NCBI GenBank assembly: GCA_035653395.1
Contig: DASRBX010000009.1
Span: 3,692-67,691 of the forward strand
Reading direction: 5' to 3'
DNA: 64,000 nucleotides
Source: Gaiellaceae bacterium
Lineage (GTDB): Bacteria > Actinomycetota > Thermoleophilia > Gaiellales > Gaiellaceae
Positions 1,295-56,050 of this stretch are shown here, piece after piece. The notes below the pieces were generated by a model, which had not been told where the DNA came from, ran no database searches, and saw only the letters and a program-made list of their open reading frames with translations. The translations under genes and the position numbers were made by a program. Every line of letters begins with the position of its first letter. The first letter of the stretch is position 1.

Positions 1295-1969
1295 ATGTCC
1301 GTCTGGGCCATCCTCGTCGCCGCGGGACGGGGGGAGCGGCTCGGGCTGGACCGGCCCAAGGCGTTCGCCAAGCTCGGAGAAGAACCGCTCCTCGCGGAGC
1401 CGCTGCGCCGGCTCGAGGCCTGTCCGTGGGTGGACGGGATCGTGCTGGTCGCGCCGCCCGGCTGGGAGGAACCTGCGATCCTCGTGGCCGAAGAGGAGGG
1501 CTGCGGCAAGGTGCATGCGTGCGTGGCGGGCGGCGAGACGAGAAGCGACTCCGTGCGGGCGGGCCTCGCCGAGGTCCCCGGCGACGCCCTCGTCGTGCTC
1601 GTGCACGACGCGGCAAGGCCGCTCCTGTCGGACGAGGTCGTCGAGCGTGTGCTCGCCCCGCTCTCCGAGGGCTGGGACGGCGCCGTGCCGGGCCTCCCGG
1701 TCGGCGACACGCTGAAGCGGGTCGGCGCCGACGGCGGCGTGGCGGAAACGGTGGCGCGCGACCGTCTCTGGGCCGTGCAGACACCTCAGGCGTTCGCCGC
1801 CGAGGCGCTGCGGGGAGCCCATTCGCCAAGTAACAGCCTGTTACAAGCGACGGACTGTGCCGGCCTCGTTGAGGCGGCGGGCGGACGAATCAAGGTCGTC
1901 GAGGGCGATCCGCGCCTGCTCAAGGTGACCTCCGCCGCGGATCTCGACACGGTGGCGGCATGGCGGTGA
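1295..1969 (+). CDS. ispD: 2-C-methyl-D-erythritol 4-phosphate cytidylyltransferase
   Basis: N-terminal motif AILVAAGRGERLG and the later VQTPQAF motif. Conserved position after carD. Confidence 0.9.
   Translation: MSVWAILVAAGRGERLGLDRPKAFAKLGEEPLLAEPLRRLEACPWVDGIVLVAPPGWEEPAILVAEEEGCGKVHACVAGGETRSDSVRAGLAEVPGDALVVLVHDAARPLLSDEVVERVLAPLSEGWDGAVPGLPVGDTLKRVGADGGVAETVARDRLWAVQTPQAFAAEALRGAHSPSNSLLQATDCAGLVEAAGGRIKVVEGDPRLLKVTSAADLDTVAAWR
1827..1847 (+). repeat. Copy 1 of the 21-bp quasi-palindromic element (CAAGTAACAGCCTGTTACAAG)
   Basis: Perfect 7+1+7 inverted repeat GTAACAG-C-CTGTTAC. It is AT-rich in a GC-rich background. It lies inside ispD, read as S-N-S-L-L-Q. Confidence 0.9.
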
Positions 1970-2917: not shown

Positions 2918-3627
2918 AGCTCGCTCTCGTCACCCACGCGGAGCATCCGAAGCTGCGGGGGACGCTGCCGAGCGTCTGGCCCGAGTTCATGTCGCACGAC
3001 TCGGTCGTGCAGTCGTTCTGGCCCCGCCTCTACGACGAGTACCCGGACTTCCAGCTCTGGGTCGTCGACCGCGACGGCGGGCGAGGCCGGACGGTCGGCT
3101 ACGCGTGCAGCGTGCCGGTCGGATGGAACGGCGCCCCATCGCCTCGAGGCATCGACTGGGCGCTCACGGACGGGGTGGAGGGGACGCCGACCACGCTCTG
3201 CGCCATCGTCGCCGGAGTCGTCCCCGAGTACCGGGGTCTCGGCATCGCCGAGACGATCCTGCGCCGCCTGGCCGCGATCGGCTCGGGCCACGGGCTCGAC
3301 GCGCTGGTCGCGCCGGTCCGCCCGACGTGGAAGGACCGCTACCCGCTCGTCTCGCTCGACAGCTACGCGGGCTGGCGGCGGGCCGACGGCCTCCCGTACG
3401 ACCCCTGGCTCCGCACCCACGAGCGGCTCGGCGGCGAGCTGCTGGCGACCGCGCCCCGCTCGATGACGATCTCGGGAACCCGGGCCGAGTGGGAGGAGTG
3501 GACGGGGCTCGTGTTCCCCGAGGACGGCAACTACGTCGTCCCGGGCGCGCTCGTCCCGGTCCACTTCAAGAACGGCCGCGGCGTCTACGTCGAGCCCAAC
3601 GTCTGGGTCCGACACGCGTTCCAGTAG
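2914..3627 (+). CDS. GNAT-type N-acetyltransferase-like protein
   Basis: The segment VPEYRGLGIAETILRRL resembles the GNAT acetyl-CoA motif. ATGA overlap with the ispF stop. Confidence 0.55.
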   Translation: MKLALVTHAEHPKLRGTLPSVWPEFMSHDSVVQSFWPRLYDEYPDFQLWVVDRDGGRGRTVGYACSVPVGWNGAPSPRGIDWALTDGVEGTPTTLCAIVAGVVPEYRGLGIAETILRRLAAIGSGHGLDALVAPVRPTWKDRYPLVSLDSYAGWRRADGLPYDPWLRTHERLGGELLATAPRSMTISGTRAEWEEWTGLVFPEDGNYVVPGALVPVHFKNGRGVYVEPNVWVRHAFQ

Positions 3628-6090: not shown

Positions 6091-6363
6091 ATGGTGCAGG
6101 AGGATCTGATCGAGATCGATCTCGACGGCAAGATCGTCCCGGTCCCGCGGGACGTCGTCGGCGCGCTCGCCGCGGCGGCCGCAGCCCGCGCGGGCGTCTC
6201 CGGGCAGCATCGCGACCTCTCCCTGCAGCTGAACCGCGGGCTCGAGCGGGGGCGCGCGACCCTCGGGCGCGCGCAGATCCGTGCGCTGTGCGCCGTGCTC
6301 GAGGAGGAGCATCCCGACCGCTTCGGCCCCGCCGGGACCGAGCTGAGGCGCGCGGCCCCCTAG
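6091..6363 (+). CDS. Hypothetical protein
   Basis: 90-aa ORF directly downstream of the propeller gene. No recognisable motif. Confidence 0.35.
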   Translation: MVQEDLIEIDLDGKIVPVPRDVVGALAAAAAARAGVSGQHRDLSLQLNRGLERGRATLGRAQIRALCAVLEEEHPDRFGPAGTELRRAAP

Positions 6364-10699: not shown

Positions 10700-11406
10700 C
10701 CCGCGATCTGGTCTACGGGAGGCGCCCGGTGCGCGAGGCGGTGCGCGGGCCGCGGGAGGTGCTCGAGCTGTGGGCGAGCGAGAGGGCTATTCGCAGCGAG
10801 GCCTGGCTGAGCGAGCTCGAGCGCCCGCGGGTGCAGACGAAGCTCGAGCGGGACCTCTCGGAGGCGGCCGGCACGCGCGACCACCAGGGAATCGTCGCCT
10901 GGTGCGAGCCGTTCCGCTACGCCGAGGCGACCGAGCTCGTCGCCGGTGCGGTACCGCTCATCGCGTGCCTCGACCAGGTCAGCGATCCGCGGAACCTCGG
11001 CGCGGTGATCCGCAGCGCGGAGGGCGCCGGGGCGAGCGGCGTCGTGGTACCCGCGCGCGGCTCGGCGCGCGTGACCGCGGCGGTCTGCCGGGCCTCGGCG
11101 GGAGCGGCCGAGCACCTGCCGGTGGCCGTCGTGCCCAACCTCGCCCGGTACCTCGCGGAGCTCAAGAGAGGCGATCTCTGGGTCGTGGCGGCGACGGGCG
11201 GTTCGGGGACGCCGCTGTGGCAGGCCGACCTGTCCGGCGGCATCGCCTTCGTCCTCGGCGCGGAGGGCAAGGGCCTGCGTCCGCTCGTTCGCCGGACGTG
11301 CGACCTGGAGGTCTCGATCCCGCAGCTCGGGCGGGTCGAGTCGCTGAACGTCAGCGTCGCCGCCGCCCTCCTGCTCTACGAGGCGCGGAGGCAGCGCGGT
11401 GGCTGA
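10696..11406 (+). CDS. rlmB: SpoU/TrmH-family 23S rRNA 2'-O-methyltransferase (RlmB/YacO-like)
   Basis: DQVSDPRNLGAVIRSAEGAG and LGAEGKGL...ESLNVSVAA motifs. Conserved position after cysS. Confidence 0.85.
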   Translation: MTRDLVYGRRPVREAVRGPREVLELWASERAIRSEAWLSELERPRVQTKLERDLSEAAGTRDHQGIVAWCEPFRYAEATELVAGAVPLIACLDQVSDPRNLGAVIRSAEGAGASGVVVPARGSARVTAAVCRASAGAAEHLPVAVVPNLARYLAELKRGDLWVVAATGGSGTPLWQADLSGGIAFVLGAEGKGLRPLVRRTCDLEVSIPQLGRVESLNVSVAAALLLYEARRQRGG

Positions 11407-11833
11407 GCCCACCCTGTACCTCTTCGACGGGTTCAACCTGCTGCACGCGGGCGGCTTCGGCTCGCCCGAGGAGCTGCGCGACCTGCTCGCCGGCTGGGTC
11501 GCGGCGCAGGGGGCGCGCGGAGTGCTCGTCTTCGACGGACACGGGACGAACCAGCGGCTCGGCCCCCTCGAGGTGCGATGGGCGGCCGACGCCGACGCGC
11601 TGCTCGAGCGGCTCGCGGCCGAGAATCGGGACAGGGAGCAGGTCGCGATCGTCTCGTCCGACGCGGCTGTTCGCGGGACGACCGGCATCGAGGTGCGGAA
11701 GCTCGCGTCGCAGGCCTTTCTCGCCGGGCTTTCGCGGCCGAGCCGTCCGCCCTCGCCCCGAGGCGACCTTCGGGACCGCCTCGATCCGGACACGCTCGCT
11801 CCGCTGGAGCGGTTACGTCGCGGCGAACGCTAG
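11399..11833 (+). CDS. YacP/Rae1-like NYN-domain ribonuclease
   Basis: LYLFDGFNLLH N-terminus and VSSD motif. Conserved yacO-yacP-sigH order. GTG start. Confidence 0.7.
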   Translation: MAEPTLYLFDGFNLLHAGGFGSPEELRDLLAGWVAAQGARGVLVFDGHGTNQRLGPLEVRWAADADALLERLAAENRDREQVAIVSSDAAVRGTTGIEVRKLASQAFLAGLSRPSRPPSPRGDLRDRLDPDTLAPLERLRRGER

Positions 11834-12647: not shown

Positions 12648-12720
12648 GCCGGAGTAGCTCAGCTGGTAGAGCAACGCTCTTGTAAAGCGTAGGCCGTCGG
12701 TTCGAGTCCGACCTCCGGCT
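12648..12720 (+). tRNA. tRNA-Thr (anticodon UGU)
   Basis: Cloverleaf folded by hand. Acceptor GCCGGAG/CTCCGGC, anticodon loop CTTGTAA, T-loop GGTTCGAGTCC. No encoded CCA. Confidence 0.9.
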
Positions 12721-12930
12721 CTTCTGCATGCCCGCGGGCGCCGCGCAGATGAGGGCGAAGTGTCCATCGCCGTGGTGGCCGTCCCAGACGTCGCGAACGA
12801 GCGCCTGCTGCGGACGAAGAACGTCGGCTCGCCGTGCGAGGGGCGCTCGCTCGTCTCGGGGAGCGCGAGGCAGATCCCGCGGACGGCCCGAGAATTTCCG
12901 AGTTCGTCACGAACGAGATCTTGCCCTGCG
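12721..12930 (-). pseudogene. MmcQ/YjbR-like gene remnant (one frameshift, C-terminal half missing)
   Basis: One frame gives ICLALPETSERPSHGEPTFFVRSRRSFAT. The +1 frame continues WDGHHGDGHFALICAAPAGMQK and then runs into the tRNA-Thr gene. Confidence 0.5.
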
Positions 12931-23073: not shown

Positions 23074-24855
23074 ATGTTCGAGAAGGTTCTCGTCGCCAAC
23101 CGGGGAGAGATCGCGATCCGCGTCTTCAGGACGCTCCGCGAGCTCGGCATCGGCGCGGTCGCCGTCTACTCGGAAGGCGACCGCGGAGCGCTCCACGTCG
23201 CCTACGCCGACGAGGCGTTCCTCCTCGGGCCGACGCCCGCTCACGAGAGCTACCTCGCGATCGACCGGATCCTCGACGCCGCGCAGCGCTCGGGTGCGCA
23301 GGCCGTCCATCCCGGCTACGGCTTCCTCGCCGAGAATGCCGCCTTCGCGCGCGCCGTCGAGGAGGCTGGGCTAGTCTGGATCGGCCCGCCGCCGGCCGCG
23401 ATCGAGCTCATGGGCTCGAAGACGGCGGCGCGCACGGCGATGCAGAGAGCCGGAGTCCCGATCATCCCGGGCACGACCGAGCCGGTCGGCTCGGTGGACG
23501 AGCTGCATGCGCTCGGCGAGGAGATCGGCTATCCGCTTTTGCTCAAGGCGGCCGCCGGCGGCGGCGGCAAGGGCATGGAGGTCGTGGAGGGACCCGGCGA
23601 CGCGGAGCAGGCCTTCGAACGCGCGCGGCGGCAGGGACAGTCGTACTTCGCCGATCCGAACGTCTACGTCGAGAAGCTCATCGTCGATCCGCGCCACGTG
23701 GAGGTGCAGGTGCTCGCGGACGCGCACGGCAACGTCGTCCATCTCGGGGAGCGCGACTGCACGATCCAGCGCCGGCACCAGAAGCTCGTCGAGGAGACGC
23801 CTTCCCCCGCGGTCGACGCCGCGTTGCGCAACCGGATCGGCGCGATCGGCGTCGAGGCCGCGCGGGCGTGCGGCTACCGCTCGGCCGGGACGATCGAGGG
23901 CCTGCTCAAGCGCGACGGCGACTACTTCTTCATGGAGATGAACACGCGCATCCAGGTCGAGCACACCGTGACCGAGATGGTCACGGGCCTCGACCTCGTG
24001 CGCGAGCAGATCCTGGTGGCGCTCGGCGAGCCTCTCTCCGTGCGGCAGGAGGACGTCGAGCTGCGCGGGCACGCGATCGAGTGCCGCATCAACGCCGAGG
24101 ACGCGGCCCGCGGCTTTCTCCCCGCGCCCGCGCCGGTCACCGACTACCGCGAGCCGGCCGGGCCGGGGGTGCGGGTCGACTCCGGCGTCGCCGCCGGCTA
24201 CGAGGTCTCGGGCGCGTACGACCCGATGGTGGCCAAGCTGATCGTGCACGGCGTCGACCGCGAGCACGCACGGCGGCGGATGCTCCGGGCCCTCGACGAG
24301 TTCTGGATCGAGGGCCCGACGACGCTCGTCCCGTTCCACAAGGCCCTCCTCTCGCATCCCTGCTTCGTCGCGGGTGAGACCTGCCACGGCGTGGTCGAGT
24401 CGGAGGAGCTCGCCGCGATGGTCGCCGAGCTCTCGGCGGCGGCGCCCGTCCCGCCACCAAGTAACAGTCTGTTACAAGGAAGGGCAGGTCCGGGTCGGGC
24501 GGTGGAGCGCGTCCGCGCCGTCGAGGTCGACGGCCGGCGGTTCGAGGTGCGGCTCTCGGAGCCCGAGCCGGCGTGGCGGGCCCTCGCGCTCCGCCGCCGC
24601 GAGCGTGCGCGGCAGGGCGGCGCCGGCGCCGGCGGGCGAGACGCGGTCGTCTCGCCGATGCAGGGCACCGTCCTCGCAGTGCCGGTGGCCGAGGGGGACG
24701 AGGTCGAGTCCGGCCAGGTGATCTGCGTGGTCGAGGCGATGAAGATGGAGAACGAGGTGCACGCCCATCGCGCCGGGACCGTCCGGAGCCTCACGGTCGA
24801 ACCGGGTCAGCCCGTCGCGACCGGCCAGGTGATCTGCATCGTCGAACCCACCTGA
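23074..24855 (+). CDS. accA: Acyl-CoA carboxylase alpha subunit (biotin carboxylase + BCCP)
   Basis: MFEKVLVANRGEIAIRV, GGGGKGM, and the C-terminal biotinyl motif EAMKMENEV. Confidence 0.92.
   Translation: MFEKVLVANRGEIAIRVFRTLRELGIGAVAVYSEGDRGALHVAYADEAFLLGPTPAHESYLAIDRILDAAQRSGAQAVHPGYGFLAENAAFARAVEEAGLVWIGPPPAAIELMGSKTAARTAMQRAGVPIIPGTTEPVGSVDELHALGEEIGYPLLLKAAAGGGGKGMEVVEGPGDAEQAFERARRQGQSYFADPNVYVEKLIVDPRHVEVQVLADAHGNVVHLGERDCTIQRRHQKLVEETPSPAVDAALRNRIGAIGVEAARACGYRSAGTIEGLLKRDGDYFFMEMNTRIQVEHTVTEMVTGLDLVREQILVALGEPLSVRQEDVELRGHAIECRINAEDAARGFLPAPAPVTDYREPAGPGVRVDSGVAAGYEVSGAYDPMVAKLIVHGVDREHARRRMLRALDEFWIEGPTTLVPFHKALLSHPCFVAGETCHGVVESEELAAMVAELSAAAPVPPPSNSLLQGRAGPGRAVERVRAVEVDGRRFEVRLSEPEPAWRALALRRRERARQGGAGAGGRDAVVSPMQGTVLAVPVAEGDEVESGQVICVVEAMKMENEVHAHRAGTVRSLTVEPGQPVATGQVICIVEPT
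24458..24478 (+). repeat. Copy 2 of the 21-bp quasi-palindromic element (CAAGTAACAGTCTGTTACAAG)
   Basis: Differs from copy 1 only at the central base. It lies in the BC-BCCP linker of accA, read as S-N-S-L-L-Q. Confidence 0.9.
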
Positions 24856-51293: not shown

Positions 51294-51332
51294 GCGCCCT
51301 GAGGGTACTCGCCGGGTTCGGACATGCCTTTC

Positions 51333-51353
51333 CTCGTAACAGTCTGTTACTTG
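51333..51353 (-). repeat. Copy 3 of the 21-bp quasi-palindromic element (minus strand CAAGTAACAGACTGTTACGAG)
   Basis: The only intergenic copy. It lies in the 63-bp spacer upstream of recR and is co-oriented with the operon. Confidence 0.9.
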
Positions 51354-51356
51354 GAG

Positions 51357-51488
51357 CTAGTGGGTGGTGAAGTCGAAGGCCCAGCCCCAGATCACGACGC
51401 CGATCAGCGCGAGGACGAAGAGGGCCCAGAGCCAGTTCGAGAAGAGGTAGGGACCGCGCACGCTCCGCCGGGGCGGCGGCTTGCTCAC
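51357..51488 (-). CDS. 43-aa single-TM peptide between ybaB and recR
   Basis: (M)[45 protein letters not shown] overlaps the ybaB stop (GTGA). Confidence 0.45.
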
Positions 51489-51840: not shown

Positions 51841-53457
51841 TCAGCTTTCCCGCTCGCGCGCATCGAATGTCTCCGTCAGGAGCTCCAGAATCCGTTCCTC
51901 GCCGGCGGGCTCCTCCTCGGCGGCCGGCGTCTCGCGCGCCTCGCCGAGCTCGAAGACGAGCTCGAGCCGCCGCCCCGTGACGTCGTACAGCGCGTCGGCG
52001 AGGAGGCCCGCGTTCTTCGGGTCGCGGGCGAGGTCGAGGTGGAACTGCGCGCTCGGCGGGAACTCGAGCGTGAGCGTGTCGCCGCTGAGCTCCGCCGGAT
52101 GCGCTTCGCGCAGGAGCGAGGCCGTCGGGATGCCGCCCCGCTCCTCGACCGCCGGAAGCACCGTCCGGGCCCACGCCTCCTGGAGCTGCGTCAGCTCGAG
52201 AGCCGGAGCCGCGGCGCCGACCGGCACGGGGACGGGCTCGGGCTCCGCCTCCGGCTCGGCGGGCGCCTCCTCGGCTTGTGACAGCCTGTCACTTGCAGGC
52301 TGTCGGGCCCCCGGAGCCGCGGCTCCCTGCTCGAGCCGCTCGAGGCGGAAGGCGATCGACTCGCGGGAGAGGTCGCTCGCCGGTCGCGTCACCTTGACGA
52401 GCGCGAGCTCGAGCGGCAGGCGCGGGTCGCCGCCCTGGCGCATGTCGTCGACCGCCACCGCGAGGAGGTCGACGAGGCGCAGCACCGTCGCCTCCCCGAG
52501 CTGGCCCGCCTGCGCCCGCAGCCGCTCGCGGGCCTCCTCGCTCGTCGCGGCTCCCTCGGGCACGTCGCCGAGATGCTGGGCGAGCATGAGCTGCCGCAGG
52601 TGCTCGATCAGGTCGAGCACGAGGCGGCCGAGATCGTGCCCGCGCTCGGACAGCTCCTCGACGTACGTGAGCGCGCCCGCGGTGTCGCGGTCGATCACGA
52701 GGTCGCAGAGCCGGAAGAGCGCTTCCTCCTCGACCGTCCCCAGCAGCTCGAGCACCGCCGGCACCGTCACCTTGTTCCCGGTCGCCGAGCCGAGCTGGTC
52801 GAGTGTCGAGACCGCGTCGCGATAGGCGCCGCGTCCGCTCCGCGCGATGAGCGCGAGGGCCGGCTCGGGTGCGTCGATCCCCTCGGCGTCCGCGATCTGG
52901 CGCAGCACCTGGACGAGATCCTGCAGCCGGGGGCGCTGGAAGACGAACGTCTGGCAGCGCGAGCGGACGGTCGGCAGCACCTTCGAGAGGTCGGTCGTGC
53001 AGAACACGAAGACGAGGTGCGGCGGCGGCTCCTCGATCAGCTTGAGGAGCGCGTTCCAGGCCGCATCCGTGAGCTGATGCGCCTCGTCGAGGATGTAGAC
53101 CTTGTAGCGCCCCTCGACCGGCTGCAGGACGACCCGGTCGCGGATCTCGCGGATGTCGTCGATGCCGCGCTGGGAGGCGGCGTCCATCTCGATCACGTCG
53201 AGAGACGTGCCGGCGCCGATCGCGCGGCACGCGTGGCATGTGCCGTCGGGTGTCGTCGTCGGGCCCTGCGCGCAGTTGAGGCACTTGGCGAGGATGCGCG
53301 CCATCGAGGTCTTGCCGGTGCCGCGCGGGCCCGCGAAGAGATAGGCCTGGCGCACCGCCTCGGTCGCGATCGCGTTCGACAGCGTCCGGACGACCGGCTC
53401 CTGCCCGACGACCTCCTCGAAGCTCTGAGGACGGTATTTCCGGTAGAGCGCGGGCAC
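51841..53457 (-). CDS. dnaX: DNA polymerase III subunit gamma/tau
   Basis: (M)PALYRKYRPQSFEEVVGQE, GPRGTGKTS, and the zinc module CNCAQGPTTTPDGTCHAC. Start moved to GTG 53457 because the track's start lies inside the SRP RNA. Confidence 0.9.
   Translation of the reverse strand: MPALYRKYRPQSFEEVVGQEPVVRTLSNAIATEAVRQAYLFAGPRGTGKTSMARILAKCLNCAQGPTTTPDGTCHACRAIGAGTSLDVIEMDAASQRGIDDIREIRDRVVLQPVEGRYKVYILDEAHQLTDAAWNALLKLIEEPPPHLVFVFCTTDLSKVLPTVRSRCQTFVFQRPRLQDLVQVLRQIADAEGIDAPEPALALIARSGRGAYRDAVSTLDQLGSATGNKVTVPAVLELLGTVEEEALFRLCDLVIDRDTAGALTYVEELSERGHDLGRLVLDLIEHLRQLMLAQHLGDVPEGAATSEEARERLRAQAGQLGEATVLRLVDLLAVAVDDMRQGGDPRLPLELALVKVTRPASDLSRESIAFRLERLEQGAAAPGARQPASDRLSQAEEAPAEPEAEPEPVPVPVGAAAPALELTQLQEAWARTVLPAVEERGGIPTASLLREAHPAELSGDTLTLEFPPSAQFHLDLARDPKNAGLLADALYDVTGRRLELVFELGEARETPAAEEEPAGEERILELLTETFDARERES
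52275..52295 (-). repeat. Copy 4 (variant) of the 21-bp element (minus strand CAAGTGACAGGCTGTCACAAG)
   Basis: Perfect 7+1+7 inverted repeat GTGACAG-G-CTGTCAC with the same CAAG flanks. It lies in the dnaX linker, read as S-D-R-L-S-Q in the same phase as copies 1 and 2. Confidence 0.75.
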
Positions 53458-53474
53458 GTGCCGATTCAAGCAGA

Positions 53475-53571
53475 GGGCCAGGCGCACCGCACACCTGGGA
53501 GTGACCACTTAGCGCTGCTTCCTCCCGGATCTGACGCGGTTCGCAGGCTCCCACTGCACGGCGCCTGGCCC
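53475..53571 (-). ncRNA. ffs: Small (4.5S-type) signal recognition particle RNA
   Basis: The minus strand contains GUCAGAUCCGGGAGGAAGCAGCG, the domain IV consensus. Terminal helix GGGCCAGGCGC/GCGCCUGGCCC. Classic position upstream of dnaX. Confidence 0.8.
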
Positions 53572-55961: not shown

Positions 55962-55978
55962 CCACGTGTTCGGGGGAG

Positions 55979-56050
55979 TGGGCGCGGCTGGGATCGAACC
56001 AGCGACCCCTCGCGTGTGAAGCGAGTGCTCTCCCGCTGAGCTACGCGCCC
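55979..56050 (-). tRNA. tRNA-Val (anticodon CAC)
   Basis: Hand-folded cloverleaf. Acceptor GGGCGCG/CGCGCCC, anticodon loop TTCACAC, T-loop GGTTCGATCC. Confidence 0.9.

Follow-up and report, generated by a model that had tools for sequence, protein, structure and literature searches.

An AT-rich, hairpin-forming palindrome dispersed through genes and spacers of a Gaiellaceae lineage: a possible REP-like repeat

The 64,000-nucleotide stretch of Gaiellaceae DNA analysed here (contig DASRBX010000009.1, positions 3,692 to 67,691; hereafter the window) includes ispD, a biotin-dependent acyl-CoA carboxylase gene and the dnaX-ybaB-recR genes, and it carries, within or beside these, four copies of a short AT-rich palindrome, the element studied in this work. 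Searching the window with the pattern CAAGTRACAGNCTGTYACAAG and allowing up to two mismatches, we found exactly four matches, at 1827-1847 (+), 24458-24478 (+), 51333-51353 (-) and 52275-52295 (-). An earlier reading of the same letters (the original prediction) had given these positions, strands and sequences and had called them non-random; both points hold, with no copies expected from 100 dinucleotide-preserving shuffles. The 21-mers have 38-52% GC in a window whose overall GC content is 72%. A relaxed search with the 15-nt core revealed no degenerate copies in the window, and Rfam at gathering thresholds placed no RNA family at any of the four.

Copy 1 (1826-1848 (+), here and below with one more base on either side) lies inside ispD, has the core GTAACAG-C-CTGTTAC between flanks CAAG...CAAG, and encodes SNSLLQ at amino acids (aa) 179-184. 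The same site is filled in the close relatives L030, L120 and L124 (L numbers denote loci throughout) and empty in all deeper ispD lineages. Copy 2 (24457-24479 (+)) has the canonical core and encodes SNSLLQ at aa 463-468 of a 593-aa acyl-CoA carboxylase subunit, in the linker between its biotin carboxylase (BC) and biotin carboxyl carrier protein (BCCP) parts; L081 has an orthologous copy. Its 3' extension GAAGGGCAGGTCCG (24479-24492 (+)) fits the consensus ...ACRAG-GAAAGRCNNGTCC of a subfamily that is found at about a dozen unrelated sites and includes copies 2 and 3. Copy 3 (51332-51354 (-)), with the canonical core and flanks CAAG...CGAG, is intergenic, 39 nt before recR, and its extension GAAAGGCATGTCCG (51319-51332 (-)) is Shine-Dalgarno-like. 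It had been assigned to the ybaB/recR spacer, which is right in that it is intergenic and precedes recR, but a conserved 43-aa membrane-type open reading frame (ORF) intervenes, and the copy begins 4 nt past the stop of this ORF. The site is filled in L210, with the canonical core, and in L209, with two copies of a variant termed V1. Copy 4 (52274-52296 (-)) is a different variant, V2 (GTGACAG-G-CTGTCAC), and encodes SDRLSQ at aa 389-394 of DnaX, in the linker after domain III; DnaX orthologues have the canonical core and SNSLLQ here in L210, and V1 and SNTVLQ in L209, while the linkers of most DnaX relatives are Pro/Ala-rich and unrelated to the element. Pfam confirmed the hosts as IspD, a biotin carboxylase-BCCP fusion and DnaX. 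The three coding copies are read in one phase, as originally described, and the domain borders agree with the proposed location in inter-domain linkers, between Biotin_carb_C (end aa 440) and Biotin_lipoyl (start aa 525) for copy 2, and between DnaX domain III (end aa 366) and DnaX_C (start aa 416) for copy 4.

To gather the wider family, we scanned 8-kb blocks for exact matches to the pattern, with each GTDB species represented by one genome; this gave at least 119 carrier blocks, with 137 copies among the matches listed. Nearly all of these blocks belong to Gaiellaceae, Gaiellales, Thermoleophilia or unresolved Actinomycetota metagenome-assembled genomes with 66-74% GC; a scan of viral contigs gave no matches to the element. 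The 119 loci listed fall into 82 syntenic site groups. In 526 kb of ispD-anchored metagenome DNA, sampled irrespective of the element, we found the canonical core nowhere except at ispD in the closest relatives, and the family is therefore confined to a sub-lineage. The four copies in 64 kb are a higher density than we found elsewhere: the other carrier loci, 904 kb in all, yielded only four extra clusters, roughly one per 226 kb. We considered whether the window region is a general hotspot with parS-like clustering and rejected this, since only 5 of the 119 listed loci map there and extra copies near the seeds are rare. One contig binned as Burkholderiales (L016, JAICUZ010000028.1; 70% GC), with an in-frame copy in an acyl-CoA synthetase-like gene, was probably mis-binned and comes from Gaiellales.

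The consensus of the 137 copies is CAAGTAACAG-[A/T]-CTGTTAC-[A>G]AG, with no conservation past positions -1 and +21. These two positions covary as complements (C.G 54 and G.C 26 vs C.C 9 and G.G 24; Fisher p = 3e-5), and the unit is therefore 23 nt rather than the 21 nt first proposed. The element is thus S-CAAGTAACAG-W-CTGTTACAAG-S', a palindrome whose only interruptions are the centre base and an AA/AA mismatch. Its flanks are CAAG..CAAG in about 139 copies and fully symmetric (CAAG..CTTG) in 18, and the arrangement CTTG..CAAG does not occur. The palindromic partner of AGTAACAG was present in 204 of 204 occurrences; without lone half-sites, there is no hint of a larger transposon with such ends. 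The core forms a 7-bp stem, and the predicted hairpin has 6 bp and -6 to -8 kcal/mol, with z of about -1.4 to -2.9.

The core occurs in five forms that are perfect palindromes. Most copies have the canonical core (V0, GTAACAG.CTGTTAC), alongside V1 (GTAACAC.GTGTTAC; L209, L204), V2 (GTGACAG.CTGTCAC; the window dnaX copy and L060), V3 (GTGACAA.TTGTCAC; ispD in L141, L142, L144 and L198) and V4 (GTAACAA.TTGTTAC; L165). Among 95 distinct 23-mers, stem position 3 is A.T in 83, G.C in 6, G.T in 4 and unpaired in 2, and the innermost pair is G.C in 81, C.G in 4, A.T in 3 and unpaired in 7. None of 500 shuffles reached the observed covariation. Canonical and V2 cores also occur together in one genome, both in the window and in L060, a sign that what is constrained is pairing and not base identity.

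The variants are also shared between sites. In L209, the copy in the dnaX linker and both of those before recR, three in all, are V1 (GTAACAC-A-GTGTTAC), and L210 and the window have the canonical core at this same recR-upstream site. Likewise, the CofD site has V1 in L204 and the canonical core in L004. The peptides encoded by V1, SNTVLQ and QVTQCYK, are the commonest variant peptides at ispD, dnaX and cofD. With V1 at several orthologous sites of one lineage, the family therefore evolves in concert. Half-converted forms are found as well, namely GTAACAC-T-CTGTTAC (L082, L117) and GTAACAG-A-GTGTTAC (L157).

Comparisons of filled with empty sites show that spacer copies are discrete insertions of about 23-29 nt. 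The window has an empty rlmB/yacP junction with overlapping stop and start (GTGGCTGA, 11388-11407 (+)), and the junction is also empty in L141 and L125; in L008, L035 and L064 it is filled by the element and its extension (about 29 nt), which provide a TAA stop codon, the Shine-Dalgarno-like sequence GGAAAG and an ATG. L090, set against L021, shows another insertion, of about 23 nt. These insertions lack the hallmarks of miniature inverted-repeat transposable elements, as the CAAG flanks are constant parts of the element, the sequence outside positions -1 and +21 is not duplicated, and no target-site duplication appears in the filled-vs-empty comparisons.

Copies inside genes are different. 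The original prediction suggested that the seven codons might behave as an indel among orthologues, and this is partly so for IspD: the loop is shorter by 2-3 codons in every deep lineage (..RRAVxxGGD/E-ATD), making absence of the element ancestral, and the element alleles are limited to the crown group, with a common linked flank signature. Even here the net gain is +2 or +3 codons, not +7. In CofD and MetH there is no change of length at all. MetH has ASDSLLQ in place of VRDGSLQ, and the QVTDCYK of CofD aligns without gaps to GVAEYYQ of the Methanosarcina mazei structure (PDB 3C3D), keeping the V and the Y; all 120 of the closest CofD homologues are of equal length. At these overwritten sites the native sequence already matched about 10 of the 21 nt. 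Copies in ORFs are thus same-length or near-same-length overwrites of places where the native peptide was already similar.

Such observations invite the explanation that the copies are sites for a conserved, symmetric host protein that binds double-stranded DNA; it might be a nucleoid, transcription-roadblock, termination or topology factor. These sites would be maintained by selection and would co-evolve with the specificity of the protein, and coding copies would form by point substitution wherever the peptide allows. Point substitution agrees with the equal-length CofD and MetH replacements at partly matching sites, but could hardly produce the clean 23-29-nt spacer insertions. Co-evolution would account for the genome-wide V1 concordance, the half-converted canonical/V1 intermediates and the symmetric change of both half-sites, although the coexistence of canonical and V2 cores argues for a pairing constraint instead. 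The low copy number, the constant presence of at least one CAAGTAACAG half-site (CAAG..CTTG 18, CTTG..CAAG 0) and the long retention of intact copies at some orthologous sites (see below) are as expected of selected sites; the turnover of sites between species (the 82 syntenic groups among the 119 listed loci) and the free erosion of ispD and CofD copies in many lineages are not. Near-invariance over 21-23 nt without a cloud of weaker sites would also be unusual, and no candidate protein was identified. On balance we regard this explanation as possible but unlikely.

The original prediction also noted that the polarity of the element equals the direction of transcription, and that random orientation and phase across the genome, at a frequency explained by composition, would count against a selected or tolerated element. 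In the window the polarity does follow transcription, and across the family the 49 coding copies are far from random: 47 are sense and 2 antisense, and the sense copies use the SNSLLQ phase (37) or the QVTxCYK phase (10). The four stop-free frames are thus used 37:10:1:1, which departs from equality with a chi-square p of 2.5e-15. However, intergenic copies are oriented randomly, with 44/87 following the neighbouring gene and 42/87 the GC skew, and we rejected an orientation that follows replication or transcription for these copies. As co-orientation is restricted to coding copies, the polarity probably reflects which peptides are tolerated, not a strand-specific signal. We infer that the frame and strand bias in genes is a translational filter, that is, purifying selection on the encoded peptide.

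A recurrent permissive site is the loop of biotin carboxylase between GEPL and GHAVE (L043:1703-1780, L048:2224-2302, L075, L045:4422, L114:5198 and L110:5609). Its configuration differs by genome: some have one sense copy, some two in-frame copies separated by 33-34 nt, and some one antisense copy (LVTDCYL).

We located the copies relative to genes with a codon-likelihood gene caller, which reproduces the expected genes of the window and gives a coding fraction of 0.90. While 49 of the 137 copies (36%) are intragenic, 88 (64%) fall between genes, which make up roughly 90% of the DNA (p about 1e-53). Convergent spacers with the element are in excess (33 observed, 11-15 expected), unidirectional ones are near expectation (40 observed, 42-54 expected) and divergent ones are scarce (3 observed, 11-19 expected). 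Spacer copies are packed against the 3' ends of genes, and the internal TAA of the element ends 30 genes, 18 on the same strand and 12 on the opposite strand, so that both stop-containing frames serve as gene ends about equally. About half of the copies are paired, with 51 pairs within 200 bp that fall into classes of 47-56, 62-67, 79-84 and 96-103 bp. The spacers between paired copies are not conserved across loci and have no more structure than their shuffled versions (mean z = -0.22). L056:179-600 holds a tandem array of about five units of about 100 bp, each with one copy (CTAGTAACAGACTGTTACAAG) and a similar GC-rich spacer.

This placement bears on a proposal that the element's primary role is at the RNA level, the copies being short hairpins at mRNA 3' ends or in operons that act as stabilisers, processing sites or translational-coupling cassettes. 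The position just after stops in convergent and unidirectional spacers is that reported for transcribed REP (repetitive extragenic palindromic) sequences, and the same hairpin forms in either orientation, yet intergenic orientation is random despite the polar flanks. Covariation keeps the pairing, but the hairpin is weak at 6 bp and -6 to -8 kcal/mol, and G.T variants are not clearly favoured over A.C variants (4 vs 2 distinct sequences). The stop, Shine-Dalgarno-like sequence and ATG supplied at rlmB/yacP suggest coupling; on the other hand, there is no Rfam match and the mini-ORF upstream of recR is not conserved. Since it also leaves the generation and rewriting of identical copies unexplained, an RNA role seems improbable as the primary one.

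The same distribution argues against the suggestion that the copies are BldD-type operators. The half-site pattern TNAC-N5-GTNA does fit all four window copies, but these are the only matches in the window, where 3.05 would be expected by chance. Operators are hard to reconcile with copies that are depleted 4-6-fold in divergent promoter spacers and sit instead at gene 3' ends and in ORFs, and the invariance over 21 nt is unlike an operator family. We therefore give this suggestion almost no credence.

Around copy 3, the 43-aa ORF noted above (51357-51488 (-)) lies between ybaB and recR and begins with a GTG that overlaps the stop of ybaB. Its product has a single predicted transmembrane stretch; the ORF is conserved and gene-called in L209 and L210 and belongs to no Pfam family. 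On the 3' side of copy 3 is a 12-codon mini-ORF (51294-51332 (-)), preceded by GAGGAAAGG and overlapping the recR start (ATGCTGA). A conserved leader peptide upstream of recR is not supported, as the ATG of the mini-ORF is CTG in L210.

Elsewhere, opposed pairs of copies bracket a conserved 104-aa ORF (MLSFAPRIP.RLL.EIERQSRR...DRAPPK) at L021:566-984, L070:5186-5603 and L109:2266-2680. Its stop is the element's TAA and its neighbours are an OpcA-like gene and an amidase gene; it has no Pfam or NCBIfam match.

We also followed the fate of copies after they arise. In the GTDB loci the element diverges by 4% and the flanks by 19%, a comparison biased by ascertainment because the loci were picked by exact match, and we replaced it with homologues of ispD, cofD and dnaX sampled irrespective of the element. 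The CofD site then forms a series, from no mismatches (CAA GTA ACA GAC TGT TAC AAG; L004 and others) through one (L208), three (CAA GTA GCA GGT TGT TAC AAA; L207), four (L206) and five (L205) to six (CAC GTC ACG CGG TGT TAC CAG; L203). These variants keep rare A/T-ending codons despite a GC content at third codon positions (GC3) of about 0.9 in the flanks, and are therefore eroding relics rather than independent conservation of the peptide. The exact element peptide is still encoded by about 28% of CofD and about 25% of IspD homologues, and an SNSLLQ-like segment by only about 22 of 120 DnaX homologues. In carrier DNA we found no excess of relics with 5-7 mismatches over the control. Copies thus persist whole in some lineages, while in others they decay towards GC-rich codons. 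At the CofD site, intact copies persist across species whose flanks are only 70-86% identical, and some lineages therefore maintain the sequence.

These relics bear on the explanation by which the element is chance or mere conservation of an SNSLLQ-like peptide. The original prediction had listed as refuting evidence SNSLLQ-like peptides in relatives that lack the nucleotide motif, and similar peptides (SNTVLQ, SNNLLQ and others) are indeed found at the ispD, dnaX and cofD sites; they are, however, encoded by compensated palindromes or by eroding relics with rare A/T-ending codons where GC3 is about 0.9. One and the same 21-mer is also read in two frames in different proteins, shuffles give no expected copies, and 64% of copies are intergenic. 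Intergenic copies and codon evidence together refute conservation of the peptide, and we give the explanation as a whole practically no weight.

Which known system does the element resemble? REP elements are palindromes of 20-40 bp, found as singletons and as dimers with spacers of 20-100 bp (PMC3733652). They lie in convergent and unidirectional spacers, at most 20 bp from ORF ends, can donate stop codons and have some intragenic copies (PMC3733652). Families of REPs and REPINs with RAYTs (REP-associated tyrosine transposases) carry GTAG or CGTC tags (PMC3733652, PMC3116915, PMC3686654). Our element shares the size and palindromic form, the occurrence as singletons, dimers and occasional arrays, the placement at 3' ends in convergent and unidirectional spacers with few copies in divergent ones, the donation of stops by its termini and the presence of some copies within ORFs. 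Like REPs, it comes in lineage-specific classes whose stems differ between related strains, and there is a RAYT-like gene in a carrier genome. It differs in lacking a GTAG or CGTC tag, in that the RAYT-like gene found is flanked by a different palindrome, in being AT-rich in actinobacterial genomes of 70-72% GC (a survey of REPs found none in Actinobacteria), in having apparently only tens of copies per genome with 36% intragenic, and in coding copies that overwrite native codons at equal length.

Other repeats are less similar. Rickettsia palindromic elements (RPEs), of about 100-150 bp, lengthen the proteins that host them (PMC3733652). The original prediction proposed an RPE-like insertion tolerated in frame, and the likeness is genuine in that a dispersed, lineage-restricted palindrome persists within genes at surface or linker positions, with nearly all coding copies in two frames, as well as in spacers; but our element has only 21-23 bp, its coding copies are not clean seven-codon insertions, and in CofD and MetH it takes the place of seven codons with no gain of residues. 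Among actinobacterial repeats, our element recalls the mycobacterial interspersed repetitive units (MIRUs) in being an intergenic repeat in operons that supplies overlapping stop and start signals (here the rlmB/yacP TAA, GGAAAG and ATG). MIRUs are reportedly non-palindromic tandem units of 46-100 bp and not same-length ORF overwrites, whereas the element is palindromic, shorter and found inside ORFs as same-length overwrites.

Finally, DNA uptake signals (uptake signal sequences and DNA uptake sequences) also combine a short conserved motif, ORF copies of unchanged length in preferred frames, and pairs after genes, and one could imagine that the element accrued in this way through biased uptake and recombination, not least as its hosts include genome-maintenance loci (dnaX and the region upstream of recR). 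Known uptake signals, however, occur about once per kb. With one copy per 16 kb or so in the window and about one per 226 kb across the other carrier loci, the element's density is far too low, in general 100-fold lower; its motif of 21-23 nt is more than twice as long as known uptake signals; few core variants have one or two mismatches; and its spacer copies are discrete insertions. An uptake signal is accordingly very improbable.

Taken together, we favour, with somewhat better than even confidence, the interpretation that the element is an untagged, AT-rich, hairpin-forming REP-like repeat of a Gaiellaceae/Gaiellales sub-lineage and that its hairpin is recognised in trans. Both the same-length replacement of conserved coding motifs and the concerted variant switch argue for a trans-acting agent that reads and rewrites the hairpin; they keep open models of a co-evolving DNA-binding protein and of templated rewriting. 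In a REP-like system, copies would be read, written and rewritten in trans as hairpins, and the likeliest agent would be a RAYT-type Y1 (HUH) transposase acting on single-stranded DNA. No protein or transposase family recurs beside the copies. A motif scan of 1.58 Mb of locus DNA found a single RAYT-like gene, in a carrier locus from a Gaiellaceae-type metagenome-assembled genome (L069:2871-3584), which scores 30 bits with Pfam Y1_Tnp and 51 bits with its best model, NCBIfam REP_Tyr_transpos, under the model cutoff of 80. It is flanked on both sides (2924-2946 and 3576-3593) by a 23-nt near-palindrome centred on GGTGTC-W-GACACC, and the lineage therefore has REPtron-like units with tiny W-centred palindromes. 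In L196, two GGTGTC-W-GACACC palindromes lie 100 bp apart (12645 and 12745).

Several observations sit uneasily with a REP-like repeat. The L069 gene, the only one of its kind in 1.58 Mb, is not flanked by the AT-rich element, and no link between the element and a transposase was found in this DNA. The element's ends (S-CAAG...CAAG-S') have no conserved GTAG or CGTC tag, and its copy number looks low for a REP family. No known peel-and-paste or cut-and-paste mechanism accounts for same-length overwrites of conserved motifs, and the half-converted forms fit stepwise evolution in situ equally well as partial rewriting. Copies also stay intact at orthologous sites across species with flanks only 70-86% identical, where a purely selfish, functionless copy should have eroded.

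Perhaps the family could be the footprint of a trans-acting, sequence-templated overwriting, in which a palindrome of 21-23 nt is written onto partly similar DNA, conserved protein motifs among it, and leaves its length unchanged, an idea we hold to be doubtful. Under such a process, a change of the template would lead to all resident copies being rewritten, giving a genome-wide switch from canonical to V1. If true, this would be a form of repeat propagation distinct both from insertion and from ordinary gene conversion.

Descriptions of REP-type repeats come mainly from Proteobacteria and a small number of other phyla, and the family here, untagged and AT-rich, occurs in high-GC Actinomycetota, specifically in abundant, uncultured soil members. 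The identity of the agent would show how short repeats persist and spread within essential genes. In practical terms, the element is a lineage marker and a source of stop codons and Shine-Dalgarno-like sequences, and it is the likely cause of odd low-GC 'islands' and of rare TTA, GTA and TGT codons in Gaiellaceae annotations.

Some further features were seen along the way. Matches to GGTGTCAGACACC inside ispD are a coincidence and represent the catalytic motif PVSDT. A further palindrome, TCTCTAGGCTAGAGA, perfect over 15 nt and unrelated to the element, occurs with identical flanks (CTGC...GGTG) at L138:8220 and L144:9856, both ispD-anchored metagenome loci, and the two positions look orthologous. 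The window itself has a perfect 16-bp palindrome, TCGAGATCGATCTCGA, at 6110-6125, which occurs there once. A bacterial small signal recognition particle RNA lies at 53473-53570 (-), directly upstream of dnaX, giving the order ffs-dnaX-ybaB-recR, and the window also encodes tRNA-Thr (12648-12721 (+)) and tRNA-Val (55978-56050 (-)).

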